Part shown: in pieces, positions 10,914-31,566 of the stretch | Numbering within the stretch: the first letter of the stretch is position 1 | Layout: each line of letters begins with the position of its first letter | Virus genome (UHGV): UHGV-0039449 | DNA: 44,033 bases | From: a virus | Strand: one strand, 5' to 3' | Position numbers and translations under genes: made by a program | The notes under the pieces: model-generated | What the model saw: only the letters and a program-made list of their open reading frames with translations | The model's database searches: none | What the model was told of the DNA's origin: nothing

Positions 10914-11244
10914 ATCCCCCGCAGAGCGCAAAGCCGCTCAGAGAGCCAGACAAGCTGCATCTGGTGTGCGTAAGCTGGAAATTGTGCTTGATGCTCAGGA
11001 AATTGAAATGCTGGAGCGTAACTGTGCCACGCGTCGCCCCGGGCGTGCGCCTTACGAATTTGGTGAGTATATAGCGTTACTGATCCGCCAGGATGATGCA
11101 CGCGTGCGCGGGCGTATAAAATCGATCAGCAGAAAACGTTGCGGTAAGTGCGGCGAGAGAGTTCCAGTTAATTCATGCCCGTGTAATGGTGACTCGCAAT
11201 GCTGGGTGACTAAAGGCTGGCATGAAACGAAATTAATAGTGTGA
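10897..11244 (+). CDS. Cys-rich (zinc-ribbon-like) basic protein, possible late-gene regulator
   Basis: 115 aa; KRCGKCGERVPVNSCPCNG cysteine cluster; GTG start; last gene before the terminator that precedes terS. Confidence 0.4.
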   Translation: MRFVAKSPAERKAAQRARQAASGVRKLEIVLDAQEIEMLERNCATRRPGRAPYEFGEYIALLIRQDDARVRGRIKSISRKRCGKCGERVPVNSCPCNGDSQCWVTKGWHETKLIV

Positions 11245-11254
11245 CATGTCACGA
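11240..11254. promoter_or_regulatory. Palindromic element TGTGACATGTCACGA (copy 1)
   Basis: 12-bp perfect palindrome GTGACATGTCAC overlapping the TGA stop of the Cys-rich gene, about 40 nt before a terminator and about 110 nt before terS. Confidence 0.4.
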
Positions 11255-11292
11255 GTAGATTATGCATGATGAATTTGATGGTTTTGAATACT

Positions 11293-11318
11293 GCCGCCAA
11301 CTATGGCGGCTTTATTTT
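11293..11318 (+). terminator. Rho-independent terminator just upstream of terS
   Basis: GCCGCC-AACTAT-GGCGGC followed by TTTATTTT; followed by a direct repeat CTATTACCAC-N6-CTATTACCAC. Confidence 0.55.
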
Positions 11319-11361
11319 GCATGGTACTATTACCACAACGGTAACTATTACCACGGTGGTT

Positions 11362-11958
11362 ATGATGCCTGCTGAACCTAAAACCTATAAACGCAAATCA
11401 ACGCAATTTAAGCCACTAACAGCAATGCAGGAGGCTTATTGCCAGTCATACATCAAAACGCCTGAAAACCAGACTCAGGCAGCGATTAACGCAGGATTCT
11501 CCCCAAATACAGCGGCAGTTAAAGCCAGTGTCATGATGCGCGATGAACGCATTCAAAAACGGATTGCCGAGTTGATGGAGGAGCGCAACAAACGAATGCG
11601 CGTCAGTGCTGATTACGTTCTCATGCGCCTGGTGGAGATCGACCAGATGGACGTGATCGACATCCTCAACGACGATGGGAGCCTTAAGCCAATCCGCGAG
11701 TGGCCGAAAATCTGGCGCACTACGCTTAGTGGCTTTGATCTGTCATCGACCATCATGAACATGAACGAGGATTCGATAGAGACAATCCTCAAAAAAATTA
11801 AATGGCCTGACAAGGTGAAGAACCTCGAACTGATTGGTAAGCATGTTGATGTCAACGCGTTCAAAGAACGTCTGGATGTTAATGTGAATGTGACAATTGC
11901 TGATCGCATAGCAGCAGCCAGGAAGCGACTCAAAGAACGTCAGGATGGTAATCAGTGA
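11362..11958 (+). CDS. terS: Terminase small subunit
   Basis: Lies directly upstream of, and overlapping, the large terminase gene; basic N-terminus MMPAEPKTYKRKSTQFKPLTAMQEAYCQ. Start placed at ATG 11362 rather than the hydrophobic extension from 11266. Confidence 0.7.
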   Translation: MMPAEPKTYKRKSTQFKPLTAMQEAYCQSYIKTPENQTQAAINAGFSPNTAAVKASVMMRDERIQKRIAELMEERNKRMRVSADYVLMRLVEIDQMDVIDILNDDGSLKPIREWPKIWRTTLSGFDLSSTIMNMNEDSIETILKKIKWPDKVKNLELIGKHVDVNAFKERLDVNVNVTIADRIAAARKRLKERQDGNQ

Positions 11959-13430
11959 AAGATACAGCGTTATCTCCTGAAGAGCAGTTGATCGAGGATA
12001 TTGCAGGGTTCACTCACGATCCGCTTGGTTATGCCCTCTATGCGTTCCCGTGGGGGGAAGAGGGGACTGAACTGGCACATGCCACCGGTCCACGTCAGTG
12101 GCAGGCCGATGCGTTCCGAGAGATACGTGATCACCTGCAGAATCCAGAGACGCGCTATCAGCCGCTTATGCTGGCACGCGCTTCTGGTCACGGTATTGGT
12201 AAATCCGCATTCATCTCAATGCTGATCAACTGGGGCATGTCCACTTGCGAGGATTGTAAGGTCGTGGTGACCGCCAACACCGACAACCAGCTACGAACGA
12301 AGACCTGGCCGGAAATTATCAAGTGGTCGAACCTTGCTATCACGAAAGACTGGTTTACCTGTACCGCTACCGCGATGTACAGCAATGACCTAGGGCACGA
12401 CAAGCGGTGGCGGGCTGACGCAATACCCTGGTCTGAGCACAACACCGAGGCATTCGCCGGACTACACAACGAGCGCAAACGCATCATCGTGGTGTTTGAT
12501 GAAGCGTCGAACATTGCGGATCTGGTGTGGGAAGTTGCCGAGGGTGCGCTTACGGACGAAGACACTGAGATTATTTGGGTGGCGTTCGGAAACCCTACAC
12601 GTAACACCGGGCGTTTTCGCGAATGTTTCCGCAAATATAAACACCGCTGGAAAACTGCGCAGATTGACAGCCGGACGGTGGAAGGCACTAACAAACAGCA
12701 GTTGCAGAAATGGGTTGATGACTACGGGGAAGACAGCGACTTCGTTAAAATCCGTGTGCGCGGTATATTCCCGGATGCATCTGAATTGCAGTTTATCCCT
12801 ACCGGCCTTACTGACGAGGCAATGAAACGGGTGGTAACCGCTGCGCAGGTTGCACATGCTCCGGTGATAATCGGCGTTGACCCGGCATACTCCGGCGTTG
12901 ATGACGCTGTGATATACCTGCGGCAGGGGCTGCACAGTAAGGTGCTGTGGACCGGCAACAAGACCACTGACGATCTGATTATGGCAAAGCGTATCGCTGA
13001 CTTTGAAGACCAGTATCAGGCTGACGCGGTGTTCATCGACTTCGGTTACGGTACCGGGCTGAAGTCAATCGGTGACGGTTGGGGGCGCACATGGCAACTT
13101 GTTCCGTTCGGTGGCGCGTCTACTGACCCGCAGATGCTCAACAAGCGTGGGGAGATGTTCAACTCATGCAAGACATGGCTGAGGCTGGGCGGCATGCTGG
13201 ATGACCAGGAAACAGCGGACGACCTGTCGGCGGCAGAGTACAAAGTTCGCGTGGACGGTAAAATCGTTATCGAACCGAAGGAAGATATCAAAGAGCGGCT
13301 TGGGCGTTCTCCTGGTAAAGGCGATGCGCTACTGCTGACGTTTGCGTTCCCTGTGTCGAAGCGTCTGCGAATTCCCGGGCAGCAGAACCAGCAAGGCAAG
13401 GCGCTTACCGAGTACGATCCATATGCTTAG
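11955..13430 (+). CDS. terL: Terminase large subunit
   Basis: 491 aa; Walker A-like ARASGHGIGKS; Walker B-like IIVVFDEAS; C-terminal nuclease-like region; GTG start overlapping the terS stop. Confidence 0.85.
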   Translation: MKDTALSPEEQLIEDIAGFTHDPLGYALYAFPWGEEGTELAHATGPRQWQADAFREIRDHLQNPETRYQPLMLARASGHGIGKSAFISMLINWGMSTCEDCKVVVTANTDNQLRTKTWPEIIKWSNLAITKDWFTCTATAMYSNDLGHDKRWRADAIPWSEHNTEAFAGLHNERKRIIVVFDEASNIADLVWEVAEGALTDEDTEIIWVAFGNPTRNTGRFRECFRKYKHRWKTAQIDSRTVEGTNKQQLQKWVDDYGEDSDFVKIRVRGIFPDASELQFIPTGLTDEAMKRVVTAAQVAHAPVIIGVDPAYSGVDDAVIYLRQGLHSKVLWTGNKTTDDLIMAKRIADFEDQYQADAVFIDFGYGTGLKSIGDGWGRTWQLVPFGGASTDPQMLNKRGEMFNSCKTWLRLGGMLDDQETADDLSAAEYKVRVDGKIVIEPKEDIKERLGRSPGKGDALLLTFAFPVSKRLRIPGQQNQQGKALTEYDPYA

Positions 13431-14245
13431 TCTTTATTTTTATCATCGAAACCTGATAATCCAGATAGAACACCAAAGTTATTAAAAACGTTTGGCTTAC
13501 CAGATTTTAATCCGGATAAGTTGTGTTGCTCCAAAAAGTTGCTAATTGTTTGGCCGTTGCCAAGTGCAAGGCTTTTTATTTGAGATTTTTCAGGGTATTT
13601 GAGTTTGTATTCGTCGAAATCATTTTGGAGGGTCTTATATGCCTCATTCATTCTTCCCAGAGTTTCCGATATCTCTTTTAATGAATGATTTAGAGCTGCT
13701 AACTGAGCACTGGCGGATCTCAATTCGTCATCTTTAGCTTTCAACTCGGCAGTCAATTCCCCCATACTATTCTTTGATCGAATAATCTCTTCTTTCATCT
13801 CTTGGATGTCTTTTTCCGCGCCAGTCTTAACTTTGTCGTATGTAACATCTTTTTTAGCCAATAACCTCTGCAGTCTGGTTTCACGCTGGATTTTTCTTGC
13901 CTTCAGGTGATTTTCGATTGAGTCATTATTATCAAGAGGCTTTGCTTGCCATACGTTAATGATATTGTTTACCCATGGTAATAGGCAGCAGATAGCAATT
14001 ACAGATAAGCATGGATAAAACATAACAGTTTTCCATGTGCTGTTATCTGAGATATATGAAATTTTATCTATTATGTTTGATTTGCTAAAAAATAGATAAA
14101 GAATTGATTTCCAGTTGAAGGCGCACCAGGACATAACAAAAGCACCAAGCACAGGGTTTTTGGCTCGATTCACGGCAGTATTGGCAGTAGATAAAAACAG
14201 CTCTTTAAACGATTCAAACATGCTAATTACCTTGAAGTTTTTCAT
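13427..14245 (-). CDS. Membrane-anchored coiled-coil protein of unknown function (moron)
   Basis: 272 aa from ATG 14245; two predicted TM segments followed by a long coiled coil; about 30% GC against the phage background; antisense insertion between terL and the portal gene; TATAAT directly abuts the start codon. Confidence 0.5.
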   Translation of the reverse strand: MKNFKVISMFESFKELFLSTANTAVNRAKNPVLGAFVMSWCAFNWKSILYLFFSKSNIIDKISYISDNSTWKTVMFYPCLSVIAICCLLPWVNNIINVWQAKPLDNNDSIENHLKARKIQRETRLQRLLAKKDVTYDKVKTGAEKDIQEMKEEIIRSKNSMGELTAELKAKDDELRSASAQLAALNHSLKEISETLGRMNEAYKTLQNDFDEYKLKYPEKSQIKSLALGNGQTISNFLEQHNLSGLKSGKPNVFNNFGVLSGLSGFDDKNKD

Positions 14246-14249
14246 GATT

Positions 14250-14264
14250 ATACCTTTAAGGTAA
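14250..14264. promoter_or_regulatory. Palindromic site ATACC-TTTAA-GGTAA at the start of the membrane coiled-coil moron
   Basis: Overlaps the TATAAT that abuts the minus-strand ATG at 14245. Confidence 0.4.
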
Positions 14265-14280
14265 TTTGCGGTCATCAAGC

Positions 14281-14304
14281 AAAAAAATGCCCGGCGAACC
14301 GGGC
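14281..14304 (-). terminator. Rho-independent terminator closing the tRNA transcription unit
   Basis: Minus strand GCCCGG-TTCG-CCGGGC followed by TTTTTTT. Confidence 0.6.
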
Positions 14305-14380
14305 GAACTGGAAGCAATGAGTTATGCCTTCCGTGGCTGTACGGGTTTACAGCATGAAGTCATCGCAATGGCGTCCTGCT

Positions 14381-14424
14381 GTAAAAAGGGCGGTGATAGT
14401 CCTTCAAGGGAAACCATCACCGCC
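14381..14424 (-). terminator. Stem-loop with T-run immediately 3' of the tRNA
   Basis: Minus strand GGCGGTGAT-(18-nt loop)-ATCACCGCC followed by CTTTTTAC. Confidence 0.45.
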
Positions 14425-14467
14425 AAGCCCCTGGAACTTCTGGCATCACGGTCCTTAGGCGTGATTC

Positions 14468-14544
14468 TGGCGCGGCATGCAGGATTCGAACCTGCGACCA
14501 ACCGCTTAGAAGGCGGTTGCTCTGTCCAACTGAGCTAATGCCAC
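14468..14544 (-). tRNA. tRNA-Arg (anticodon UCU), phage-encoded
   Basis: 77-nt cloverleaf folded by hand from the minus strand: acceptor GTGGCAT/ATGCCGC, D-arm GCTC/GAGC, anticodon stem ACCGC/GCGGT with loop CTTCTAA, T-arm GCAGG-TTCGAAT-CCTGC, encoded CCA. Confidence 0.8.
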
Positions 14545-14866
14545 AACGCTGAGAGCACTTAGCCTGTTAAGGCACCACACTTTGTCGCGGCTCCATAAAT
14601 GCTCTCATCGTTGCACCCTCGTCTCTTCCGAGGTGTCACACCGAATCGCCGGGATGGTGAATCCCCGTGCGCGGAATAAAACCGCTCGACTTGCACATTC
14701 CGGCTACCTGGTTCGTTTGCCCGAGCAAGGGAGGGTGCCACTTAAACGTATCCAGACCGCTATCGGCGCATGTGCCATACACCGTACTGCTCAAAATAAA
14801 AGCTCACCCCACCTGTTCAATTTAACGACAAGCCAGTCAGGTTAATAACCGGAATGAACTCTTTGC

Positions 14867-14881
14867 TTACCTGAAAGGTAA
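14867..14881. promoter_or_regulatory. Palindromic site TTACC-TGAAA-GGTAA upstream of the portal operon
   Basis: Perfect site about 90 nt upstream of ATG 14972. Confidence 0.5.
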
Positions 14882-14971
14882 TAATTAGTGCGTTAAATGT
14901 CAAGTGTCTACGATAAATAAATCACATGTGGTTAAATTGGTAATAATTTAATTGCGTACGGAGTCATTGAT

Positions 14972-15178
14972 ATGTGCATGGGTAGCTCACCATCAGTGCC
15001 TGCAACACCAGAAGTTCAGGCAGCACCACAGGAGCAGGATGCCGCCGTTGTTGATGCCCGCGACGAAGAAACTCGTCGCCGTCGCGCTGCTGCTGGTCGT
15101 AGTTCTACGCTGCTTACCGGTTCTCAGGGCGACACATCAACCGCTAATACCAGCGGTAAAACGCTGCTTGGTCAGTAA
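14972..15178 (+). CDS. Hypothetical small acidic protein preceding the portal gene
   Basis: 68 aa; its RBS context CGGAGTCATTGATATG is duplicated before the portal gene (CGGAGTCATTGAAATG). Confidence 0.4.
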   Translation: MCMGSSPSVPATPEVQAAPQEQDAAVVDARDEETRRRRAAAGRSSTLLTGSQGDTSTANTSGKTLLGQ

Positions 15179-15192
15179 CCGGAGTCATTGAA

Positions 15193-16872
15193 ATGGCGGA
15201 AACAACTAAAGAGCGATTGAACAAACAGTTCGCACAACTTGAAAGCGAGCGTCAGTCGTTCGAGCCGCACTGGCGCGAGTTGAGTGATTACATCAACCCG
15301 CGTGGTTCCCGCTTTCTGACTTCTGAGGTCAACCGTAACGATCGACGCAATACACGCATTATTGATTCGACCGGGACTATGGCGGCGCGCACTCTCGCCA
15401 GCGGCATGATGTCAGGCATCACAAGCCCCGCGCGTCCGTGGTTTCGCCTGGCTACGCCAGATCCTGAAATGATGGATTATGGCCCTGTTAAGTTGTGGCT
15501 TGAGGCGGTGCAGAACCGCATGAACGATATGTTCAATAAGTCGAATCTCTACCAGTCTCTTCCGCAGTTATACGGAAGCCTCGGCACATACAGCACTGGT
15601 GCAATGGCGGTGCTGGAGGATGACGAGGACATCATTCGCACAATGCCATTCCCGATAGGCAGTTACTACCTGGCTAACTCACCTCGTGGCAGTGTGGACA
15701 CCTGTTTTCGCAAGTTCTCTATGACTGTTCGTCAGCTTGTTCAGGAGTTCGGGCTAAATAACGTCAGCGAATCCGTAAAAAGCATGTGGGAAAGCGGCAC
15801 CTACGAGAAGTGGATTGAAGTGATGCATTCGGTTTACCCGAACATTGACCGCGATACATCGAAGCTGGATAGCAAGAACAAGCCATTCAAATCGGTTTAT
15901 TACGAGGTTGGTGGCGATAACGACAAGTTGTTGCGTGAGTCCGGATTCGATGAGTTTCCAATTATGGCTCCGCGCTGGGAAGTTAACGGCGAAGATGTTT
16001 ATGGATCATCATGCCCGGGTATGCTGGCGCTTGGACCTGTTAAGGCATTGCAGCTTCTCCAGAAGCGCAAGTCGCAGTTGATTGATAAAGCCACCAATCC
16101 GCCGATGGTTGCTCCGACTTCCCTCAAGAATCAGCGCGCCTCCCTTCTTCCTGGCGACATCACGTATATCGATCAGATTACTGGTCAGGATGGTTTCAGG
16201 CCTGCTTATCTGGTTAACCCCAGTACAGCAGATCTGGTAGCAGACATTCAGGACACCCGCCAAATCATTAACAGCGCCTACTTTGTCGATCTGTTCATGA
16301 TGTTGCAGAACATCAATACCCGCTCGATGCCTGTTGAAGCGGTGATCGAAATGAAAGAAGAAAAACTTCTGATGTTGGGGCCGGTTCTGGAGCGTCTGAA
16401 CGACGAATGTCTTAATCCTCTCATTGACCGCGCTTTCTCGATGATGGTGCGTAAAAACATGCTGCCGCCACCGCCTGACGCGATGGAAGGTATGCCCCTG
16501 AAGGTCGAATACATTTCTGTCATGGCTCAGGCGCAGAAGTCTATCGGCCTGTCCAGTCTGGCGTCCACGGTTAACTTCATTGGTCAACTTGCGCAAGCGA
16601 AACCAGAAGCTCTCGACAAACTCAACGTTGATCAGGCGATCGATGCATTCGCTGATATGTCCGGAGTGTCTCCAACCGTCATTGTTCCGCAGGAACAGGT
16701 TGAGCAGGCTCGCCAGCAACGGGCACAGCAACAACAGCAGCAACAAATGATGGCGATGGGGATGGCGGCGGCACAGGGTGCCAAGACGCTAAGCGAAGCT
16801 AAAACTTCGGATCCGAGTGTTTTGTCAGCTATGGCGAATGCAGTTAGTGGTCAGGGTGGGCAATCACAATGA
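15193..16872 (+). CDS. Portal protein
   Basis: 559 aa, directly downstream of the terminase region; size and position fit a podovirus portal; Q-rich C-terminus. Confidence 0.75.
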   Translation: MAETTKERLNKQFAQLESERQSFEPHWRELSDYINPRGSRFLTSEVNRNDRRNTRIIDSTGTMAARTLASGMMSGITSPARPWFRLATPDPEMMDYGPVKLWLEAVQNRMNDMFNKSNLYQSLPQLYGSLGTYSTGAMAVLEDDEDIIRTMPFPIGSYYLANSPRGSVDTCFRKFSMTVRQLVQEFGLNNVSESVKSMWESGTYEKWIEVMHSVYPNIDRDTSKLDSKNKPFKSVYYEVGGDNDKLLRESGFDEFPIMAPRWEVNGEDVYGSSCPGMLALGPVKALQLLQKRKSQLIDKATNPPMVAPTSLKNQRASLLPGDITYIDQITGQDGFRPAYLVNPSTADLVADIQDTRQIINSAYFVDLFMMLQNINTRSMPVEAVIEMKEEKLLMLGPVLERLNDECLNPLIDRAFSMMVRKNMLPPPPDAMEGMPLKVEYISVMAQAQKSIGLSSLASTVNFIGQLAQAKPEALDKLNVDQAIDAFADMSGVSPTVIVPQEQVEQARQQRAQQQQQQQMMAMGMAAAQGAKTLSEAKTSDPSVLSAMANAVSGQGGQSQ

Positions 16873-17165
16873 CAGATTACGAAGATGATCAACTGAAAGA
16901 AGAAAACGCCCGTAAGCAACGTGACATGGCACAGCGTGAAATTGATGACATTCGCTTTGTCATGAGCAGTGAACAGGGGCGTCGCGTTGTCTGGTCTGTG
17001 CTGGAGAAAGGCCGGGTGTTTTCCGCTATCTCACCGATGGACGCTATGGCAATGGCATTTAATGAGGGGCAACGCAATCTGGCGCTGGAACTGTTTCAGC
17101 GCGTTATGGCGCATTGCCCTGAACAGTATTTGAAGATGGCCAAAGAGGCCAGTGAACAGGAGTGA
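16869..17165 (+). CDS. Hypothetical head-assembly protein
   Basis: 98 aa, overlap-coupled to the portal gene (ATGA). Confidence 0.45.
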   Translation: MTDYEDDQLKEENARKQRDMAQREIDDIRFVMSSEQGRRVVWSVLEKGRVFSAISPMDAMAMAFNEGQRNLALELFQRVMAHCPEQYLKMAKEASEQE

Positions 17166-17167
17166 TC

Positions 17168-17863
17168 ATGAATTTATTTGAGCGTTTGCTGTATCGCCGT
17201 CTTTGCGATGAGCAACCAGTCGATGGTGGAGCAGCTCCGGCTGCGTCAGAACCGTCAGCGCCTGCAGGTGATAACCCTGCTCCAGTTGGTGATCCATCAC
17301 AACAGGAAGGTGATAAGCCACAACCTGTTGCTGATGGCGATAAACCTGCTGATGACAAAAAGCCTGAAAACGATAAGCAGGATGAAAAAAAGGACGGCGA
17401 TAAACCAGAGGGTGCGCCTGAGAAGTACGAGTTTCAGGCTGCCGAAGGCGTAGAGCTGGATACAGAAGCGTTGAAGGAGTTCGAGCCGGTGGCGCGAGAA
17501 CTTAACCTGACCAACGAGCAAGCGCAAAAGCTGGTTGATGCTTATCCGAAGATTCTGGCAGGTGTGCAGCAGCGCCAGGCAGAAGCCTGGCAGAAAACAA
17601 CCGAGCAGTGGGCTGCTGATGTAAAAGCTGACAAAGAAATCGGTGGCGACAAGTTGATTTCTAACCTTAGCGCCGCACAGCGTGCGCTTGACCAGTTCGG
17701 GACACCTGAACTCAAAGAATATCTGAACACCACCGGGCTGGGTAATCACCCTGATCTGGTCAAAACGTTCGTGAAAATCGGAAAGGCGATGTCTGAAGAT
17801 GGCATGGTCACCGGTGGTAATGAAGGCCAGCGTAGTGCGGCCGAAGTGCTCTATGGCAAATAA
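17168..17863 (+). CDS. Scaffolding protein (acidic, coiled-coil)
   Basis: Low-complexity acidic N-terminus (PAPVGDPSQQEGDKPQPVADGDKPADDKKPENDKQDEKKDGDK) followed by helical region; lies between portal and capsid genes. Confidence 0.6.
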   Translation: MNLFERLLYRRLCDEQPVDGGAAPAASEPSAPAGDNPAPVGDPSQQEGDKPQPVADGDKPADDKKPENDKQDEKKDGDKPEGAPEKYEFQAAEGVELDTEALKEFEPVARELNLTNEQAQKLVDAYPKILAGVQQRQAEAWQKTTEQWAADVKADKEIGGDKLISNLSAAQRALDQFGTPELKEYLNTTGLGNHPDLVKTFVKIGKAMSEDGMVTGGNEGQRSAAEVLYGK

Positions 17864-17877
17864 GAGAGGAAATGACA

Positions 17878-18864
17878 ATGGCTGTTAAAGGCTTAACTGC
17901 GCTAACGCTGGCTGACTGGGGTAAGCGCGTCGATCCAAACGGGAAAGTCGATAAGATTATCGAGCTTCTCGGTCAAACTAACCCGATCCTTCAGGATATG
18001 CCTTTTGTCGAAGGGAACCTTCCTACCGGACACCGAACCACCATTCGTTCTGGTTTACCTTCAGCTACCTGGCGTTTGCTGAACTATGGCGTACAGCCAA
18101 GCAAATCAACCACAGTGCAGGTAACCGATTCCGTTGGCATGCTGGAAACCTATGCTGAAGTCGATAAGTCACTGGCTGATCTGAACGGCAATACCGCCGA
18201 ATTCCGCCTGTCTGAAGACCGCGCATTTATTGAAGCGATGAATCAGCAGATGGCGCAGACGCTGTTTTATGGTGATTCCAGCGTTAACCCTCAGCAGTTT
18301 ATGGGACTGTCCTCCCGCTATTCCAGCCTGTCTGCAGGTAATGCTCAGAACATCATTGATGCTGGTGGCACGGGTACAGATAACACCTCAATCTGGTTAG
18401 TGGTGTGGGGCGAAAACACCGTGCATGGCATCTTCCCGAAAGGGCAGAAGGCTGGCATTCAGATGGAAGATAAAGGCCAGGTGACACTGGAAGATGCTAA
18501 TGGCGGCAAGTACGAAGGCTACCGTACCCATTACAAATGGGACAACGGACTTGCTCTGCGTGACTGGCGTTATGTTGTTCGCATTGCAAACATCGATGTC
18601 AGCAATCTTTCAGAACCTTCCTCTGCCGCAAATATTGCGAAGTTGATGGTTAAAGCACTGCATCGCATTCCAAACCGTGGCATGGGTCGCCCGGTGTTCT
18701 ACATGAACCGCACTGTAGGCCAGGCTCTTGATTTGCAGTCTCTGGAGAAAACATCTCTGGCGATTAGCGTAAAAGAGACTGAAGGCGAGTGGTGGACGTC
18801 ATTCCGTGGTGTACCAATCCGTGAAACTGATGCGCTTCTGGAAACAGAAGCCCGCGTGGTGTAA
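17878..18864 (+). CDS. Major capsid protein
   Basis: About 329 aa directly after the scaffold gene; strong GAGAGGA RBS; called from size and position in the head module. Confidence 0.75.
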   Translation: MAVKGLTALTLADWGKRVDPNGKVDKIIELLGQTNPILQDMPFVEGNLPTGHRTTIRSGLPSATWRLLNYGVQPSKSTTVQVTDSVGMLETYAEVDKSLADLNGNTAEFRLSEDRAFIEAMNQQMAQTLFYGDSSVNPQQFMGLSSRYSSLSAGNAQNIIDAGGTGTDNTSIWLVVWGENTVHGIFPKGQKAGIQMEDKGQVTLEDANGGKYEGYRTHYKWDNGLALRDWRYVVRIANIDVSNLSEPSSAANIAKLMVKALHRIPNRGMGRPVFYMNRTVGQALDLQSLEKTSLAISVKETEGEWWTSFRGVPIRETDALLETEARVV

Positions 18865-24152: not shown

Positions 24153-24164
24153 GGGGATAATAAG

Positions 24165-26678
24165 ATGCCAGTTGTACCAACAACATCGGGCCGTCAGGTT
24201 CAGAGCAGAGGGATTTCGACGCAGGGATTCTCATCGTTTCAGACACTAAATGTCGGTGATGTACTTGGCGATGTTGCAGAGCAATATGCAGGTATTATTG
24301 CGCAGGCAAAACAGCGTGCGAATGTTGCTATGGCTCAGGATGCTTCTCTTAGCTTAAGCCAGATAAGCAGCGATCTGCTGAATAATCCTGAAACAGGATT
24401 GCTTAACCTGAAAGGGAAAAATGCTATTGGAAAAGGTCAGGAGTATACGCAGCAGTTTGATGCTCAGGTCGAACAACTGGCTATGTCGCTGCCGGATGAA
24501 CAGGCTCGTAATGCTTTCATGCAGCAGGCGCAGCAGCAGCGCATTCAGTTCACTACGCAGGCAGGGCGGCACGAGATAGGGCAAATAAATGCCTACGAAG
24601 AAGGCCAGTTTCAGGCTGCGCTGCTGAACAATGGTAAAAATGCCGCAGCATTGTATGGCGACAACGCCGCATACGTATTGGCTAATAAGCAAACTTTCCA
24701 GCAAATTGAGGATTACGGCATTGCACATGGCTGGAGTGACGAGCAAATCCAGGCCAAGAAAATCGAGTTTAAAGAGAAGGTTGCTGATGCTGCATTGTCC
24801 CAGTGGTCGGCAAACAATGCGACCGCATTCATCCAAAGTAATGGCGAGTTAAGTGATACTGCTGCTGGAGCTCGCCGTGCTGTAGCAGATAGTGACTCTT
24901 CCGAGCGTGCCCGTGGCATACGCAACAATAACCCAGGAAATCTCGAATACAGCAAAACTAATCCGTGGGTAGGCCAGACCGGTGATGATGGTCGATTTGC
25001 TAAATTCGAAACACCTGAACACGGGATTCGTGCATTAGGGCGGAACCTGATGTCGTATCAGCGGCAGGGTATTGATACAGTCAGCGAGATAATTAATCGC
25101 TGGGCACCGCCTACTGATAAAAATGACACTATGTCGTATATCAAAGCAGTGTGCGAACAACTTGGCGTTTCTGCTGATGAGCCTCTCGATGCATCAAATC
25201 CTGATACCCTGAAGGCGCTTTGTGCAGCCATTATCCATCATGAGAACGGTAGCCAGCCATACAGTGATCAGCAGTTAACTGCTGGTGTCAGTGCAGCACT
25301 TGGTTTATCAACAATTCCAACCAACACCAAACGCTATACCGGTAATGCAGCATTCGATGCGGCATCTCCTGAGGCGCAGGCAAGTTATATGCGACAGGCG
25401 GATCAACTGCGTCGGCAGCAGCAGGCTGAATATAAAACGATGATTGACAGCCAGGTTCGCGATGCGACGGCTGCGTATATGCGTGGCGTTGAATTTCCTA
25501 ATCCACCTGGTGAGGCTGATTTTATTGCAGCTTATGGCGTCAGAGAAGGAAACCTGCGATATACCGAGTTCAGAAATACGCAGATCGCCGGACAGTATAT
25601 AGGCTCTTTCCGCAACATGCCGACAAGCAGCATTACAGCATATGTTGAGCAATTACGCCCGGATACTGGTGAGACAGGGGAGGGGTATGCGGCACGCGCA
25701 GCTCTTTATGACAACGTTGTTTCGGCTGCAAATCAGGTGATAAAGCAGCGGCAGTCGGATCCTGTGCAGTTCTCTCTTGCCGCCGGACAGGCAAAGCCTA
25801 TCGACATGAGCAATAAGGATAACTTTGGACAGAGCGTTGCCTTGCGTGCCGCTCAGGTCAGTGACCTTGCCAAGTCATATGGCACTCCACTGACGTTCTT
25901 TTCCAAAGACGAGGCCAATCAGATCGGTGTTTTCTTTCGTGATGCGCCCGTTTCCCAACAGGCAGCATATCTCGATACCATCAGGCAAAGCACTGGTGGT
26001 GGGCAGGTGTATATGTCAGCACTACAGCAGATCAGTGCCAACGCTCCATCTGCTGCCGTTGCCGGGATACTGATGGATAAACCTGGTGGTATTTTGGCAG
26101 AAAAAAACTGGTTTAATCCGGATGTTTCCGTGTCACCTGAAACCGCTGCGCAGACAATTCTTGCTGGCGCGGCGGCTCGTAAAGGTACTGATGATGCGAA
26201 AGGTATTCCGATGCCTAAAGATGCTGATCTTCGCCTTGAGTTTTCTGACATGGTGAAGGATGCATTTGCTGGTGATGCTCAGGGGGCATCAATGGCATAC
26301 GAGATCGCAAAGGACTATTACGCTGGTGTGATGGCGAAAAAAGGCGTGGTATCAGGCGAAATTGACAATGATATCTGGAAACAGGCTGTTAACGTAGCTA
26401 CAGGTGGCGTGCATGACTATAACGGAATGGGGAATGTCCTTTTGCCGTGGGGAATGTCTGCAGAGCAATTCGATAAGCAGGTTAATCAGGCTTGGAATGA
26501 ACAAGTTGTCGGCACAGGGATAAAAACACCGCCTGGTCAGTATGGTTTGCAAAGTTACGGCGATAGTCAGTACCTGGTAAAACTTGGGACTGGATATCTG
26601 CTGAAGGATGATGGTTCTCCTGTTGTTCTTGATCTGACACAGAAGCGTCAGAGATTCTCCGGAGATATTCCGCAATGA
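24165..26678 (+). CDS. Internal virion / ejection protein
   Basis: 837 aa; conserved-looking central block ERARGIRNNNPGNLEYSKTNPWVGQTGDDGRFAKFETPEHGIRALG..., possibly a cell-wall-directed domain. Confidence 0.55.
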   Translation: MPVVPTTSGRQVQSRGISTQGFSSFQTLNVGDVLGDVAEQYAGIIAQAKQRANVAMAQDASLSLSQISSDLLNNPETGLLNLKGKNAIGKGQEYTQQFDAQVEQLAMSLPDEQARNAFMQQAQQQRIQFTTQAGRHEIGQINAYEEGQFQAALLNNGKNAAALYGDNAAYVLANKQTFQQIEDYGIAHGWSDEQIQAKKIEFKEKVADAALSQWSANNATAFIQSNGELSDTAAGARRAVADSDSSERARGIRNNNPGNLEYSKTNPWVGQTGDDGRFAKFETPEHGIRALGRNLMSYQRQGIDTVSEIINRWAPPTDKNDTMSYIKAVCEQLGVSADEPLDASNPDTLKALCAAIIHHENGSQPYSDQQLTAGVSAALGLSTIPTNTKRYTGNAAFDAASPEAQASYMRQADQLRRQQQAEYKTMIDSQVRDATAAYMRGVEFPNPPGEADFIAAYGVREGNLRYTEFRNTQIAGQYIGSFRNMPTSSITAYVEQLRPDTGETGEGYAARAALYDNVVSAANQVIKQRQSDPVQFSLAAGQAKPIDMSNKDNFGQSVALRAAQVSDLAKSYGTPLTFFSKDEANQIGVFFRDAPVSQQAAYLDTIRQSTGGGQVYMSALQQISANAPSAAVAGILMDKPGGILAEKNWFNPDVSVSPETAAQTILAGAAARKGTDDAKGIPMPKDADLRLEFSDMVKDAFAGDAQGASMAYEIAKDYYAGVMAKKGVVSGEIDNDIWKQAVNVATGGVHDYNGMGNVLLPWGMSAEQFDKQVNQAWNEQVVGTGIKTPPGQYGLQSYGDSQYLVKLGTGYLLKDDGSPVVLDLTQKRQRFSGDIPQ

Positions 26679-28477
26679 GTTACTTTGGCCTTAATCCAGT
26701 AAACCAGAATCAGCAGCTTGACGAAGCAGTATCAAATCCAGCTGGCTTTAACAGCGATGTTGGTTTTTTCGACAATGCTGTAGGAGCGGCATTGTCTGGT
26801 TTGTACTCCGGGCTGGTGGCAAAGCCAGATCAGTTGCTATGGGCAGGGATGGATAAAATCGTATCCCCGATTGCTCAGTTTGTTAACGAAAACACCTCGC
26901 TCAATGACACTTCAGTTTCATACATTGCCGAGCAGAGAAAACTAGCAGAGCAGCAGGTTAAGCGGCTGACGCCTGATGCCGCGACAACCGGAACCGCCGG
27001 GCAGGTTCTTTATGGGTTGTTCGATATGGGCGGGCAGGCTGTTGTCGGTACAACGCTCGGTGGTCCTGTCGGAGGTGCAGCGGCGGTAACTTCGCTACAG
27101 GGTTTTTCTGAGTTTGAACGGCTGACAGCACAGGGTGTTGATTTCAGGACAGCGCAGGAAGCGGGATTAGTGCAGGGCATTACTGCTGGGGCCGGGACAT
27201 TGATCCCTATGAGCCTCGGGTTACGTGCTGGTGGTGCGCTGGCGGAAGGTGTGGCGGCTCAGCTCGCGCGGACGGGTGAAAGTTCAGTACGACGCGCCGC
27301 AGCAACAGCAGTACGTGCAACGCCAGATATTGCCTATGCCGCAGGTACAAATATTGCGTTCGGTATGGCACAGCGTGGGCTTACTGCAAAAACGCTTCGT
27401 GATGGTGGCTATAGCGAAATGGCTAACCAGTATGATGTGTTGGATCGACAGGCAATTGCTATTGATGCTGTTCTTGGGGTGGCGTTTGGTGGTGTCGGCA
27501 GATTTATTAACTCTCGCGGCGAGTCTACAAACGCACCAAATTTTTCACCAGTTGATATCGATGCTGCACTGGCGGCGAATGCCGCTCATCATGCTGAAAT
27601 TGATATTGCGCCCGGCGTGCCGATCAACGTGCTTTCGCGCAATTCTCACATTCAGGCTCTGCGAAAAGCTATGTCTGATGTTAGCCAGGGGAGACCTGTA
27701 GACGTTGCCAGCATTGTTGAGTCTGCATCTTTCAGTGAAATTCCTGGGCGCAAGAGTCTGCTGTCTCAGGCAGTTAATGAGGCTCTGTCATCTGTAGATG
27801 ATGGAGTAACGGCGCGCGCTATAGAAAATCGGTTGCTTGAAGAACAGGCCGCGCAGCTTTTGCCGCGTGGAGATAGACAGGTTTACCAGTCTGAAATCGC
27901 TAATAGCCAACGAATTATTGAAAATCTCACTGAACAGCGTGCACAAATTCTTGCAGAAGAGCCAACCGGTAGCGGTAAAGCTTTGTCTCGTGCTCGATCA
28001 GATAAACAGGCCAGACTTCGCGATATTGATCAACGAATCCGGCAGGCACAAGAACGCCTGGAATTTTCCCGTAACGCGTTGGCACCGCACGAGCCTGGCG
28101 GTCAGCTTTTTGAAGCTCGAGCAGAACTGGCTCGGAGACAGCAGGCAGAAAGTGAACTTAATGCTCAGGCTGTTTCATTCTATAAAACAGCAGAGGTCAG
28201 GACGCCAGACGAAGTAGCTCCTTTTGAGCCTGATAAAATATTGCAACAGGCAGAACAAAAAATGATGTCAGATAAGGCAGGAGATATTGATCTGCGCATA
28301 GCTGAAGACTCGCTGCTTGAATCACCTGACATGATAATCACCGTGCTGGATGATGATGGTAATCCACAATCGCGCAGCGCGCGTGAAGTACTGGATGAAG
28401 CGAACAGGGAAAGTGAGCAGGCAATACAGGATTCCAGCCTGTTTGATGTCGCTGTGGCGTGTTTCTTGAGAGGTTAA
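26675..28477 (+). CDS. Internal virion / ejection protein
   Basis: 600 aa, Ala/Gly-rich N-terminal half and coiled-coil C-terminus; overlap-coupled. Confidence 0.55.
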   Translation: MSYFGLNPVNQNQQLDEAVSNPAGFNSDVGFFDNAVGAALSGLYSGLVAKPDQLLWAGMDKIVSPIAQFVNENTSLNDTSVSYIAEQRKLAEQQVKRLTPDAATTGTAGQVLYGLFDMGGQAVVGTTLGGPVGGAAAVTSLQGFSEFERLTAQGVDFRTAQEAGLVQGITAGAGTLIPMSLGLRAGGALAEGVAAQLARTGESSVRRAAATAVRATPDIAYAAGTNIAFGMAQRGLTAKTLRDGGYSEMANQYDVLDRQAIAIDAVLGVAFGGVGRFINSRGESTNAPNFSPVDIDAALAANAAHHAEIDIAPGVPINVLSRNSHIQALRKAMSDVSQGRPVDVASIVESASFSEIPGRKSLLSQAVNEALSSVDDGVTARAIENRLLEEQAAQLLPRGDRQVYQSEIANSQRIIENLTEQRAQILAEEPTGSGKALSRARSDKQARLRDIDQRIRQAQERLEFSRNALAPHEPGGQLFEARAELARRQQAESELNAQAVSFYKTAEVRTPDEVAPFEPDKILQQAEQKMMSDKAGDIDLRIAEDSLLESPDMIITVLDDDGNPQSRSAREVLDEANRESEQAIQDSSLFDVAVACFLRG

Positions 28478-28482
28478 ATTAA

Positions 28483-30957
28483 ATGAGACAGGAATGTATA
28501 CAAGCGGTCCAGCAGGCGGCGCAGCGCACGTTAACGGCGCGAGAAATACAGAACATTGAAGACCGCATTTATCGAAATATGCGCTCTATTGCTCGTGATG
28601 ACCCGATGTCGTGGAGACAACTTTCCGAATCAGAGCGGCTATATCGTGCAGCACAATTGGCATCTGAAGAATTACAGCGAGAAGCGGCATTAAAGAAACG
28701 TCGTGTGGCCCTCACTATAGCCGCACGTCAGAGATTGGATAAATTTATCAATAGCTATCAAGGGGCTGATGGGAAACTTGGCGCTCTTAACCGTACTATT
28801 GCTTTTAATGCAGACGGTAAATCGAATTTCCTCTCTGTTGAATCCAGAACAAAAGCCACCCGTGATTATGCATTGAGTCAATTGCAGGAGGCATTCGAAG
28901 CAGTTGATCCTCGCTTTTTTGGTCTGTTTGAAGATGAAGCTGGCGTACGTGACCTGGTATATGAAATGCGGGGGCAAAATACTGGCAATGCTAAAGCAAG
29001 AAAAGGTGCTAAGGCGTGGAGAGAAGTTACAGAGCTGCTGCGCCGCCGGTTTAATGATGCTGGTGGGGACATTGGCTATCTCGAAAACTGGGGGATCCCT
29101 CAACATCATTCTATGGAAAAGGTTGGGGCGGTATCAAAAGATAAATGGGTTAGCGATGTTATAGGTAAGCTGGATCGCAAATATTATACCCGAGCCGATG
29201 GACAACTGATGAACGATGCCGAGTTGTCTGCATTTCTTGGAGAGGCTTATAACACGATCGCTACTGGTGGGTTGAATAAGCTTACTGATACCGGAATGCG
29301 AATTTCCGGCGCACGTGCTAACCGTGGTAATGCATCACGACAGATACATTTCAAAGATGCAGATTCCTATCTTCAATATCAGCAACTTTATGGCGATCGC
29401 TCTCTATGGGAAATCATGGTCGGTCACCTGGAAGGTATCAGTAAAGATATTGCACTGGTGGAAACATATGGCCCAAACCCCGATCATGTTTTCCGCTCTC
29501 TTCTTGATCAGGTGAAGGCAGAAACGGCAACAGCTAACCCGAGTAAAACCGGTAAAGTCGAGCGGCTGGCGAACAACACAGAGAATCTGTACAACTTTAT
29601 TTCCGGAAAGACACAGCCTGTAGCGAATCCGCACATCGCGCGATGGTCTGACAATATCCGCAACTGGCTGGTTGCCAGCAGACTCGGATCCGCGTTGCTG
29701 TCATCGTTCTCTGATCTTGGAACCATGTATCTGTCTGCGAAGGTTACCAACCTTCCAATGAACCAGTTATTCCGCAACCAGCTTGAAGCTATGGACCCAA
29801 CGAACCGTACAGAACTTGCGCGGGCGCGCCGCGCTGGTCTGGCGATGGAATCTCTACTTGGCAGCGTTAACCGCTGGGCGATGGATAATATGGGGCCGTC
29901 TGTGTCTCGTTGGGCTGCAACGGCGGTAATGCGTGCCAGTGGGCTTACAGCATGGTCAGATGCGCACAAGCGCGCCTATGGCGTAACCATGATGGGAAGC
30001 TTGGGAGAAGTAGTGTCACGGACACCAGACCTTCGTAGCCTCGATGATTCTGATTTTCGTATCCTGAAAAGCAAAGGGATTACTGACACAGACTGGAGCG
30101 TATGGAAGCTGGCGCAACAGGAGGACTGGGGGAACGGCAATAATACGATGCTGACACCGGAAAGCATTATGCGTATCCCTGATTCAGCAGTTAAACATCT
30201 TGGTGAGCCTGAACGCGTGAAATTTGAGGCAATGCGTAAACTGCTCGGTGCCGTAACTGAAGAAGTTGATATGGCTGTTATTACACCGGGAGCACGTGAG
30301 CAACTGATAACCGGTTCTGGTATTCAGCGTGGAACATGGAAAGGTGAATTAACGAGAAGTGTTTTCCTGTTTAAATCGTTCCCTATCTCGGTGGTTATGC
30401 GTCACTGGTCACGCGCTATGGGTATGCCGTCTGCTGGTGGGCGTGCGGCATATATTGCGACGTTTATTGCCAGTACGACCATTCTTGGCGCTTTGTCGCA
30501 GCAACTTAACGACCTTGCGTCTGGTCGTAATCCTCGCGAGATGACAGGAGAAGATGCTGCTAAATTTTGGCTTGGTGCTCTACTGAAAGGTGGTGGTCTT
30601 GGCCTTTACGGTGACTTTTTATTGTCAGATCACACTAGGTACGGAAGCGGCGCGCTGGCGTCGATGCTTGGCCCGGTAGCTGGTCTGGTTGATGACGTAG
30701 TGAAGATTGCTCAGGGCATACCGTTAAATGCTGTGGAAGGGAAGAGTGAGCAGACTGGTGGTGATCTGGTGAAGCTGGGGAAAGGTTTGATGCCTGGTGC
30801 GAATCTCTGGTACTTGAAGGCGGCTCTCGATCACATGATCTTTAACCAGATGCAGGAGTATTTTTCACCAGGCTATTTGCGTAAAATGGAGCAACGTTCG
30901 AAGAAAGAGTTTAACCAGACATACTGGTGGCGACCACAGGATGTCACTCCGCAATAA
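28483..30957 (+). CDS. Internal virion / ejection protein (large)
   Basis: 824 aa; last gene of the late operon before an AT-rich moron segment. Confidence 0.55.
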   Translation: MRQECIQAVQQAAQRTLTAREIQNIEDRIYRNMRSIARDDPMSWRQLSESERLYRAAQLASEELQREAALKKRRVALTIAARQRLDKFINSYQGADGKLGALNRTIAFNADGKSNFLSVESRTKATRDYALSQLQEAFEAVDPRFFGLFEDEAGVRDLVYEMRGQNTGNAKARKGAKAWREVTELLRRRFNDAGGDIGYLENWGIPQHHSMEKVGAVSKDKWVSDVIGKLDRKYYTRADGQLMNDAELSAFLGEAYNTIATGGLNKLTDTGMRISGARANRGNASRQIHFKDADSYLQYQQLYGDRSLWEIMVGHLEGISKDIALVETYGPNPDHVFRSLLDQVKAETATANPSKTGKVERLANNTENLYNFISGKTQPVANPHIARWSDNIRNWLVASRLGSALLSSFSDLGTMYLSAKVTNLPMNQLFRNQLEAMDPTNRTELARARRAGLAMESLLGSVNRWAMDNMGPSVSRWAATAVMRASGLTAWSDAHKRAYGVTMMGSLGEVVSRTPDLRSLDDSDFRILKSKGITDTDWSVWKLAQQEDWGNGNNTMLTPESIMRIPDSAVKHLGEPERVKFEAMRKLLGAVTEEVDMAVITPGAREQLITGSGIQRGTWKGELTRSVFLFKSFPISVVMRHWSRAMGMPSAGGRAAYIATFIASTTILGALSQQLNDLASGRNPREMTGEDAAKFWLGALLKGGGLGLYGDFLLSDHTRYGSGALASMLGPVAGLVDDVVKIAQGIPLNAVEGKSEQTGGDLVKLGKGLMPGANLWYLKAALDHMIFNQMQEYFSPGYLRKMEQRSKKEFNQTYWWRPQDVTPQ

Positions 30958-30968
30958 AAGGAGATATG

Positions 30969-31091
30969 ATGGTTCAAATAACTTTTATTGTACTAATATG
31001 TGCAGCGTTTTTATGCTATTCATACATTTTGATAAAAATGGGTTTCAATTGGAATCTCTGTTGCGTGCAGCGGCATGGTTCGGCTTTGTAG
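30969..31091 (+). CDS. Small hydrophobic peptide (about 40 aa), tentative
   Basis: Hand-translated MVQITFIVLICAAFLCYSYILIKMGFNWNLCCVQRHGSAL; strong AAGGAG RBS 5 nt upstream; AT-rich. Confidence 0.3.
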   Translation: MVQITFIVLICAAFLCYSYILIKMGFNWNLCCVQRHGSAL

Positions 31092-31176
31092 TATTCGGAA
31101 TTGTATTGTTCGGAAGAATAATAAAATAACTAGTTAATTTGTGGATTGGTGCTGTTTTTCCATGATAGGGGTAATT

Positions 31177-31557
31177 ATGAGAAAAGTATTTTTGATTTTT
31201 GGATTTATGCTTCTCGTTGGATGCCAGTCAGCTGCACAGTTTGAAAGAAATATGCTTACGTGGCGCGGGCAGAGTATAGACGCAATGGTTCAGCAGTGGG
31301 GGTATCCTCAGGGAGAGCTTACATCTCCAGATGGAAACAGAGTGTATGTTTACTCAAGCTCTGGTAGTTATAACGTACCACAAACCACAACGTATAATAC
31401 TACGTCTAATCTAATTGGTAATACTATATATTCAAACACATACGCAACAACTGATGGCGGTTATACACTCCATTTCAGTTGCTCTGTTTACGTTGAGTTT
31501 GGTGCTGATAAGATTATTAAAAATGTTACATGGCGCGGTAATAATTGCGTTGCGTGA
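31177..31557 (+). CDS. Lipoprotein of unknown function (moron)
   Basis: 126 aa; signal peptide plus lipobox MRKVFLIFGFMLLVGC; S/T/N/Y-rich mature part; AT-rich; followed by a terminator. Confidence 0.55.
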   Translation: MRKVFLIFGFMLLVGCQSAAQFERNMLTWRGQSIDAMVQQWGYPQGELTSPDGNRVYVYSSSGSYNVPQTTTYNTTSNLIGNTIYSNTYATTDGGYTLHFSCSVYVEFGADKIIKNVTWRGNNCVA

Positions 31558-31566
31558 CATGTCACA
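31552..31566. promoter_or_regulatory. Palindromic element GCGTGACATGTCACA (copy 2, inverted)
   Basis: Same palindrome overlapping the TGA stop of the lipoprotein gene, directly followed by a terminator; reverse complement matches copy 1 at 14 of 15 positions. Confidence 0.4.

Follow-up and report, generated by a model that had tools for sequence, protein, structure and literature searches.

Ribbon-helix-helix regulators such as P22 Arc, Mnt, CopG, MetJ, AmrZ and omega are small intertwined dimers with a strand, helix, helix fold, whose two-stranded beta-ribbon recognises a short palindrome or pseudopalindrome. At the mosaic joints of lambdoid and P22-like phages there are reportedly conserved boundary or 'linker' sequences, an idea said to be that of Susskind and Botstein. 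The consensus site of CRP is TGTGA-N6-TCACA, and that of FNR is TTGAT-N4-ATCAA. In the telomere phage N15, the SopB sites IR1-4 have the sequence GTGCGACC-NN-GGTCGCAC (PMC7205306 Table 4). The vB_EcoP_ZX5 paper covers the repressor, antirepressor and integrase only.

The DNA analysed here (UHGV-0039449, 44,033 nucleotides, referred to as the window) is an epsilon15/phiV10-like (Uetakevirus) prophage. It carries two copies, A and C, of a short palindrome, in the following setting (no strand is assigned to the palindromes):

10906..11244, plus strand: p55 gene, 112 aa; its TGA stop (11242-11244) lies within copy A
11241..11252, no strand: palindrome copy A, GTGACATGTCAC; 14-mer at 11240-11253; p55 stop inside
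11293..11318, plus strand: intrinsic-terminator-like hairpin GCCGCCAACTATGGCGGC with T-run; closes the early-right transcription unit
11330..11362, no strand: two overlapping TTACC-N5-GGTAA palindromes (11330-11344 and 11348-11362), just 5' of terS
11365..13430, plus strand: first late unit, terS (11365-11958) and terL (11955-13430)
31141..31557, plus strand: variable 138-aa ORF (phrog_3716), last gene of the head-tail unit; its TGA (31555-31557) lies within copy C
31554..31565, no strand: palindrome copy C, GTGACATGTCAC; 14-mer at 31553-31566; mosaic joint
31566..31591, plus strand: terminator-like hairpin AGGCCGCTTTCGCGGCCT with T-run; directly abuts copy C

As a preliminary description of this DNA had stated, the 14-mer TGTGACATGTCACG occurs exactly twice in the window, at 11240-11253 (plus) and 31553-31566 (minus). 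Its core, GTGACATGTCAC, is a perfect 12-bp palindrome, exact at 11241-11252 and 31554-31565, and the sole copy with one mismatch in the window was located within a coding region at 16921. None of 100 dinucleotide-preserving shuffles of the window yielded any match to the palindrome; these shuffles and the per-genome expectations given below ruled out a chance origin, in agreement with the earlier judgement. Also confirmed was that each copy overlaps a TGA stop, in identical register, of ORF 10897-11244 at A and ORF 31141-31557 at C, and adjoins a terminator-like hairpin and T-run (11293-11310, about 40 nt downstream of A; 31566-31583, abutting C). The significance of the opposite orientation of the copies found no support, because the core is its own reverse complement and orientation is set by a single flanking base on each side (T..G versus C..A), which is weak evidence for an inverted pair. 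The hairpin at 11293..11318 is kept in Salmonella and Enterobacter relatives. The hairpin at copy C lies between the convergent head-tail unit and a minus-strand gene (31589-31822), its phiV10 counterpart carries a terminator annotation, and hairpin and palindrome are conserved jointly as an island of about 35 bp. A Klebsiella phage homologue of the 138-aa ORF likewise terminates inside the palindrome.

Copy A does lie before terS, as described, but copy C does not follow the last late gene: a 789-aa ORF (34056-36425) occupies the tailspike position of relatives, assigned from the phiV10 and TL-2011b gene maps by position only, and ORFs at 36912-38724 occupy the lysis-gene positions, all to the right of copy C. 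What the A/C pair encloses is therefore the packaging, head and tail block and not the late region as a whole. The idea that the two copies bracket a late operon as a unit likewise found no support, since most relatives have a third copy, B, after the bidirectional terminator that follows terL; the window lacks this terminator and copy B, and a minus-strand moron (13427-14317) abuts terL. A different repeat, TTACC-N5-GGTAA, was found 15 times in the window against 0.67 expected, including the divergent immunity region (6053 and 6101), and it is likely to be the repressor operator. At 11330..11362 it probably serves the first late unit as repressor operator or promoter element, and the late units appear to have promoters of their own, which carry this repeat. 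The immunity region contains no GTGAC-type copy, and the 12-bp palindrome was rejected as the prophage repressor operator. It was likewise rejected as a promoter: its GTGACA looks like a -35 hexamer, but a consistent -10 is missing downstream at A, B and C, and a promoter scan returned only a 9-of-12 promoter-like match over site A and none over site C.

The protein encoded at copy A, p55 (10906-11244), is a homologue of phiV10 p55, epsilon15 gp49 and N15 gp46. It starts with a basic helix at the N-terminus, continues with a core predicted to be strand-helix-helix, and ends in a Cys cluster that probably binds zinc. Pfam has no family for p55 and the best NCBIfam match was at E=0.055; among PDB sequences there was no relative with a solved structure, and none of these three resources matched p55 to Q proteins. 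The best fold matches, though weak, were to DNA-binding ribbon-helix-helix proteins. PADLOC gave no match, and a reading of p55 as a defence-system regulator was dropped. The family is found in epsilon15/phiV10-like prophages, N15-type telomere phages, and ZF40-like, P2-like and Vibrio phages, and has so far been annotated as 'hypothetical' or with the generic term 'transcriptional regulator'.

Among 185 distinct p55 homologues, 118 have GTGAC-NN-GTCAC at the gene end, and in 98 of the 185 the TGA lies inside the motif in a fixed register. The homologues with a site at the gene end include those of the lambda-like phage Chlobot, the myovirus ZF40, the telomere phage N15 and unclassified viral contigs; in Chlobot, ZF40 and N15 the distance between the motif and the stop codon is 0-10 nt. 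The gene and palindrome pair thus recurs in many unrelated temperate phages. Twelve phage genomes bearing a homologue contain one to three copies of GTGACNNGTCAC each, compared to approximately 0.03 expected, whereas lambda, which has no p55 homologue, contains none, so that in this comparison enrichment was confined to gene-carrying genomes. An unbiased scan of all 1024 inverted 5-mers with spacers of 0-8, carried out on 35 non-redundant loci (0.8 Mb), ranked GTGAC-N2-GTCAC first with 60 matches (median 0; 99th percentile 6), and also retrieved the published N15 SopB centromere site and TTACC-N5-GGTAA. In the literature covered, which left the epsilon15 genome paper outside its scope, none of the 12-mers was found in a phage context.

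The two central bases of the motif vary together across all sites of one genome. N15-like phages have a TG/CA centre at all three sites, a 45%-identical relative has an AA/TT centre at the three homologous places, and the Vibrio-type loci have a GC or AC centre. The predicted beta-strand differs in parallel with the centre (RKLELVLD, TRRDWVLE, PQRQLMLE and INEIRVRLE); the N15 form of the site, GTGACTGGTCAC, would be to N15 gp46 what GTGACATGTCAC would be to p55. The orientation of asymmetric centres is not fixed relative to transcription, which fits a two-fold symmetric DNA binder, and full sites and half sites occur in arrays with a spacing of approximately 25-37 bp. Most of the approximately 26 site copies in annotated genomes lie between genes or at gene ends, as tallied from annotation tables, and a terminator-like hairpin is present within 30 nt of 19 of 72 sites versus 4.5% of random positions, an excess inflated by related genomes. 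Conserved copies also lie inside coding regions, in N15 repA and in the ZF40 cII-like gene. A P2-like phage subfamily has no site at the gene end and carries a copy 0.6-3.4 kb away. One N15 site precedes a predicted -35 by about 30 nt, and the sites in Vibrio K233 lie 20-30 nt upstream of start codons; these fit ordinary promoter control better.

We consider it probable that GTGAC-NN-GTCAC is the cognate double-stranded DNA site of p55, which would bind as a symmetric dimer with a ribbon-helix-helix-like core and a Cys cluster. The link is correlative and comes from gene-site linkage, gene-restricted enrichment and co-variation of the site centre, all of which favour the Cys-rich protein at 10897-11244 that had earlier been named as a candidate binder. 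By comparison across genomes, one copy lies at the 3' end of the p55-family gene, usually with the TGA inside, and the one or two extra copies elsewhere in the same genome would make up a tiny regulon. The earlier proposal of a site for a regulator or antiterminator thus seems sound as to a protein-binding site; its other half, a late-gene activator or antiterminator, found no support, as there are no Q-like or N-like features and no promoter.

Counts in related genomes bore out the constancy of the element, since Uetakeviruses of E. coli, Salmonella and Enterobacter agree in every one of the 12 bases at three corresponding positions, while their flanks and neighbouring terminator stems diverge. 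Site A is mutated in phiV10 and about four other close relatives in which p55 is intact, and phage EC.W1-9, in which p55 is frameshifted and copies B and C are absent, was still isolated as a phage, indicating that the p55/palindrome system is dispensable for growth. Using a 600-bp query centred on site C, 532 E. coli genomes were found to match, and only 29 of these also share the left side, including the 138-aa ORF. In most of the 532 (approximately 500) homology starts at query position 299/300, the left edge of the palindrome, and at least seven left flanks unrelated to one another reach the palindrome with a gap of 0 nt while the right side is shared. Approximately 10% of complete E. coli genomes carry a match to the site C region of such a prophage. 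At site B in relatives, at least eight different minus-strand morons stop 4 nt from the palindrome. A short conserved sequence therefore stands exactly at the joint of shared and unshared DNA at C and, in relatives, at B. Site A was rejected as a mosaic joint, as the only within-genus change of its flanks is a 186-bp indel directly 3' of the palindrome; the alternative right flank (26 of 86 relatives) is this ORF indel and the remainder is homologous. The suggestion that recombination breakpoints coincide with the palindromes, and that these are module-exchange junctions, was accordingly upheld at C and at B in relatives but not at A.

These joints, the indel beside A and the RecE/RecT-type recombination genes encoded by the phage (phiV10/TL-2011b-type gene maps) would all suit a palindrome that is primarily a recombination 'linker' at module boundaries, used in homologous or microhomology exchange, with protein binding secondary. 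We regard this as unlikely, because it leaves unexplained the attachment of the palindrome to a single gene's stop codon across unrelated phages, the conserved copies inside genes and the co-variation of centre and protein. Twelve bp is also short for efficient homologous exchange, and selection on function alone predicts joints at gene boundaries. Homologues of the site-B moron in p55-less phages are without the palindrome, and none follows the stop of those in Akira, mEpX1 and MK54, which also led us to reject an integron attC-like, cassette-borne site. A genome terminus or cos was rejected too, as the phiV10 record opens inside the palindrome merely because this is the base after the stop of the last gene, and a packaging site is spoken against by copies B and C and by N15, which has a separate cos.

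Read as RNA, the palindrome would form a small hairpin, GUGA-CAUG-UCAC, in the 3' UTR or before the next ribosome-binding site, and might serve as a p55 target comparable to that of Mu Com, as a nut-like element or as a stabilizer. Its position at or just past stop codons, often abutting the Shine-Dalgarno of the next gene (GGAGG in N15 and Chlobot), is in keeping with this, as are the terminators met downstream of A and C and, for minus-strand transcription, of B, and a Cys cluster of the kind seen in some RNA-binding proteins. However, the stem is 4-5 bp at most and does not appear when site C is folded to minimum energy, Rfam gave no match, and an invariant 'stem' with a variable 'loop' is the opposite of what is expected of a structure under selection. 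The unconserved orientation of the asymmetric centres, the operator-like arrays of full and half sites and the weak fold matches of p55 to DNA-binding proteins also make an RNA element very unlikely. An N/nut arrangement (boxA-boxB with an arginine-rich N protein) was rejected, since boxB has a 5-bp stem and 5-nt loop, compared to at most a 4-5 bp stem and 4-nt loop here. Hardly any credence is due to the idea that p55 is irrelevant and that the palindrome serves another factor, be it the repressor of the prophage, CRP or a comparable regulator of the host, a partition protein, or an enzyme of methylation or restriction. It is true that TGTGA..TCACA is similar to CRP half sites, that all of the phages compared encode DNA methyltransferases, and that N15 has dispersed centromere sites in similar regions. 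A CRP or FNR site was nevertheless rejected, as the observed TGTGA-N4-TCAC has a half-site spacing of 4 rather than the 6 of CRP and the wrong half site for FNR; the likely repressor operator here is TTACC-N5-GGTAA, and the SopB sites are those given above (PMC7205306). A host protein fails to explain linkage to one gene across phage groups or co-variation of the centre within genomes, and a methylase or restriction site would exceed one to three copies per genome.

The Uetakevirus copies mark the ends of rightward transcription units, beside intrinsic terminators: A closes the early-right unit, B (lost in the window) closes terS-terL, and C closes the head-tail unit where it converges with minus-strand morons. 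If the palindrome is the p55 site, bound p55 might act on elongating RNA polymerase at unit boundaries rather than on initiation, and we infer that at operon ends it would strengthen or gate termination, serving as a roadblock or an insulator. Since these 12 bp are retained where conserved DNA meets variable DNA, the palindrome coincides with mosaic joints and may promote them. A wider reading, which we think rather improbable, makes p55 and its palindromes a phage-encoded boundary system, a protein-assisted terminator or insulator that also creates hotspots of moron exchange. A ribbon-helix-helix/zinc protein would then sit on the DNA beside terminators at operon ends and convergent junctions, would act in other phages at repA and the antirepressor leader, and would turn tightly occupied sites into hotspots for the exchange of neighbouring morons. 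If so, one small protein would both insulate transcription units and shape mosaic evolution.

The p55 family gains from this analysis a candidate partner and a candidate site, both testable. The placement is unusual, with a site in the regulator's own stop codon and more copies at operon ends by terminators, and it points to control at transcription-unit boundaries, which is poorly understood in phages. Twelve bp also make a very sharp mosaic joint in hundreds of genomes, and this is a place to ask if the binding of a protein steers the exchange of modules. A reporter phage for E. coli O157 has been built from phiV10, so that knowledge of its boundary elements has practical engineering value.

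Of the known systems, lambda Q/qut/tR' resembles this locus in its layout: p55 is the last gene of an early-right (nin-like) operon and directly precedes the late genes, from which a DNA site and a terminator separate it, and, as in Q, a predicted DNA-binding part is coupled with a Cys cluster. Unlike Q, p55 shows no homology to any Q family, Chlobot and N15 carry a p55 homologue plus a separate Q-like gene, and extra copies stand at the distal ends of late units, where nothing would be gained by read-through; unlike qut, which is set within a late promoter, the palindrome has no convincing promoter overlapping it, although a terminator does follow A and C. With the lambdoid and P22 linkers it shares a short sequence kept at a module edge with one side swapped, at breakpoints that coincide in hundreds of genomes, but it differs in being perfectly palindromic and linked to one specific protein-coding gene, and its conservation within genes of other phages makes it more than the residue of a junction. 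Like N15 SopB IR1-4, a few copies of one palindrome are dispersed over functionally distinct genome regions, and in N15 both kinds of site presumably lie in the same general regions (replication, antirepressor control). The sequence and the protein differ, however, and the Uetakeviruses integrate and have no partition system, with no partition genes annotated in Uetakevirus records. The ribbon-helix-helix regulators differ from p55 in that it has no detectable sequence membership in their class, carries an extra basic N-terminal helix and the C-terminal Cys cluster, and has its site in the stop codon and at operon ends by terminators, not at its own promoter. It may resemble them in its predicted strand-helix-helix core and in its best, though weak, fold matches; its gene adjoins its probable site, and the residues of the predicted strand vary with the site centre.

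In the window, an E. coli prophage of the epsilon15/phiV10-like (Uetakevirus) type, the 14-mer TGTGACATGTCACG occurs exactly twice, at 11240-11253 (+) and 31553-31566 (-). None of 100 dinucleotide-preserving shuffles of the window contained a match, which rules against a chance origin; as the preliminary description had held, the palindrome is real and non-random. At its centre is a perfect palindrome of 12 bp, GTGACATGTCAC (the core), and the only one-mismatch copy of this core in the window lies within a gene, at 16921. A TGA stop falls inside both copies (A and C) in the same register, ending ORFs 10897-11244 and 31141-31557, and each copy adjoins a terminator-like hairpin with a T-run, both as previously described. 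The opposite orientation is true of the 14-mer, but since the core is self-complementary it is defined by a single flanking base on each side. Placement at the two ends of the late operon held for copy A, which precedes terS, but the copies do not bracket the whole late region because the tailspike- and lysis-position ORFs (from comparison with the gene maps of phiV10 and TL-2011b) lie to the right of copy C.

Features at the two palindrome copies in the window
11241-11252, copy A, closing the early-right operon; next come a terminator, two TTACC-N5-GGTAA copies, terS (11365) and terL
11293-11310, terminator-like hairpin and T-run near copy A
31554-31565, copy C, after the last gene of the head-tail unit; faces minus-strand accessory genes
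31566-31583, terminator-like hairpin and T-run near copy C
34056-36425, tailspike-position ORF, assigned by gene-map comparison with phiV10 and TL-2011b

E. coli phages phiV10, TL-2011b and phiv142-3, Salmonella phage VB_ST_E15 and Enterobacter phage Tyrion have the exact 12-mer in matching places, in keeping with the earlier expectation for related phages, while the flanks and even the terminator stems vary among them. Most of these relatives carry a third copy (B) directly 3' of the bidirectional terL terminator, at +2262 or +2448 nt from the stop of p55 (the 112-aa Cys-rich protein whose ORF ends in copy A) in most of approximately 86 close IMG/VR relatives. Copy B is missing from TL-2011b, EC.W1-9 and the window, where a minus-strand gene abuts terL. 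The corresponding stretch of the window, 13427-14545, holds a minus-strand 296-aa ORF (phrog_4780) with weak coiled-coil-type matches to DndD, LmuB and JetC models, as well as a minus-strand tRNA gene (14471-14544); in relatives, different accessory genes occupy this place. A single mismatch affects copy A in phiV10 (GTGACATGTTAC) and in a few relatives, with p55 intact. The linear phiV10 RefSeq record (L001) was opened inside this palindrome, right after the stop codon of the last gene, splitting it between 39101-39104 and 1-8. In EC.W1-9 (L004), a frameshift interrupts the p55 homologue (5945-6290) ahead of its Cys cluster, copies B and C are lost and A is kept, which fits co-dependence of gene and sites in this single lineage. 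The palindrome-free type of site C is also seen in E. coli strain N1 (L322).

The p55 protein matches phrog_536, is annotated as 'hypothetical' in sequence databases, and has no Pfam family or curated model; its family is small (213 clusters at 50% identity among 1.84 billion representatives). Using tblastn, homologues were found in 154 records from widely differing phages. The exact palindrome lies 7 nt past the homologue stop in lambda-like Chlobot, as the sole copy in the genome, and 3 nt past it in Pectobacterium myovirus ZF40, which has two further copies elsewhere. Gene 46 of the telomere phage N15 has its TGA inside GTGACTGGTCAC; the interior of repA and the antirepressor operon leader each contain this 12-mer or its complement again. 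Among 185 distinct homologues (approximately 300 IMG/VR loci), 118 had GTGAC-NN-GTCAC between -35 and +120 of the stop, with the TGA inside the motif in 98. A P2-like subfamily has no site at the homologue stop, a copy being located 0.6-3.4 kb downstream. In P2-like Yersinia phage vB_YenM_42.18 (L010, 8073-11730), the homologue comes after gpA and is followed by a gene annotated (annotation only) as an 873-aa Smc-like 'chromosome partition protein', and the palindrome and degenerate copies lie 3.4 kb downstream. This region of P2-like phages is a defence-gene hotspot, and an accessory or defence cassette there might be under the control of the homologue. The N15 (L009) sites are at 28550, 33237 and 39269, with homologous positions in a second locus (L118); N15-type phages retain all three, at the gene 46 end, in repA and in the antirepressor leader, the last upstream of a predicted promoter pointing toward a terminator. 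In several loci from outside Uetakevirus (e.g. L155 at 10350-10380, L135 and L182), a small conserved hairpin, CCTGTTGCAGCAGG or CCCGATGCAGCGGG, lies approximately 10-12 nt past the palindrome and immediately before the ribosome-binding site of the next gene.

A scan of all 1024 inverted 5-mer half sites with spacers of 0-8 in 35 non-redundant loci (0.80 Mb) returned GTGAC-N2-GTCAC as the top motif, with 60 matches (median 0, 99th percentile 6). Its other strong motifs were TTACC-N5-GGTAA and the N15 SopB centromere site GTGCGACC-NN-GGTCGCAC (PMC7205306), and the scan is validated by this recovery of a published protein site. The SopB IR1-4 centromere sites and the GTGAC-type sites of N15 are different elements. 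Twelve homologue-bearing genomes had 1-3 copies each, versus approximately 0.03 expected, and no copy was found in the lambda genome or at homologues of the copy B accessory gene in phages lacking p55.

The palindrome is neither the SopB site nor TTACC-N5-GGTAA, of which the window has 15 copies (at most one mismatch) versus 0.67 expected.

TTACC-N5-GGTAA positions in the window
5278, 5341, 6053, 6101, 6438, 8384, 8446, 11330
11348, 14250, 14867, 32541, 33556, 33937, 36793

Copies fall between cI and cro and close to the starts of major rightward ORFs (terS 11365, 15193, 34056, 36912), and in epsilon15-like phages the motif is probably a repressor operator or promoter element; the epsilon15 genome paper reportedly gives a similar consensus, ATTACCWDWWNGGTAAT. 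If it is a repressor operator, many dispersed promoters would be under one repressor.

The palindrome probably works as DNA rather than as RNA. As RNA, it could form a hairpin of 4-5 bp at most; no such hairpin appears in the minimum-energy fold at copy C, and Rfam gave no match. The half sites do not vary; the two bases between them differ among lineages but are uniform within a genome: TG/CA at 3/3 sites in N15-like phages, and AA/TT at three homologous positions in a 45%-identical relative. This switch in the distant N15 relative is concerted. A predicted beta-strand of the protein changes in parallel with centre type, and several loci combine a full site with half sites spaced 25-37 bp. 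Asymmetric centres are not conserved in orientation relative to transcription, which fits a two-fold symmetric DNA binder. In an AlphaFold2 model of p55 (pLDDT 70.8), a basic helix is followed by an extended segment, a pair of helices, the Cys cluster and a last helix. Of the two roles first proposed, that of a binding site gains, by gene linkage and enrichment, a most likely partner in the Cys-rich protein encoded at 10897-11244; we consider it fairly probable that the palindrome is the recognition site of p55.

The other proposed role, module-exchange junctions, was also borne out, as flanks switch at copies B and C. A 600 bp query centred on copy C matched 532 of 5426 complete E. coli genomes, the left half being common to only 29; in most, homology begins at query 299/300, where the palindrome has its left edge. 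On that side, this palindrome is adjoined at 0 nt by at least seven unrelated flanks, and one type without the palindrome is joined directly to the terminator. Next to copy B, the minus-strand genes that end 4 nt from the palindrome are of at least eight kinds. At copy A, 26 of 86 close relatives have a 186-bp, 70-codon ORF directly 3' of the palindrome; the window, E15 and Tyrion lack this ORF. It (MPKIRYDLED...DEFDGL; 2500-2712 in the IMG/VR relative L027), which has no family match, and its ribosome-binding site start a few bases past the palindrome, at a place corresponding to window 11253/11254. In our view the joints follow from the conservation of a functional site at boundaries between units, where binding may enhance exchange.

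According to annotation tables, most of approximately 26 site copies in annotated genomes are intergenic or at gene ends, and 19 of 72 sites, a count inflated by related genomes, lie at most 30 nt from a terminator-like hairpin, versus 4.5% of random positions. In Uetakeviruses, three rightward units have the sites at their 3' ends, and two of these ends are convergent junctions; we therefore infer that, instead of affecting initiation, bound p55 would serve at terminators as a roadblock or insulator against elongating polymerase. One N15 site lies approximately 30 nt upstream of a predicted -35, and two sites in Vibrio K233 lie 20-30 nt upstream of start codons; therefore, ordinary promoter control may apply outside this phage group.

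No phage context was found for the 12-mers in the searchable literature and, as far as checked, no description of the p55 family, its site, the stop-codon embedding or the terminator-side placement. As a kind of system, the pairing of palindromic sites with a small DNA-binding protein of a phage is well known.
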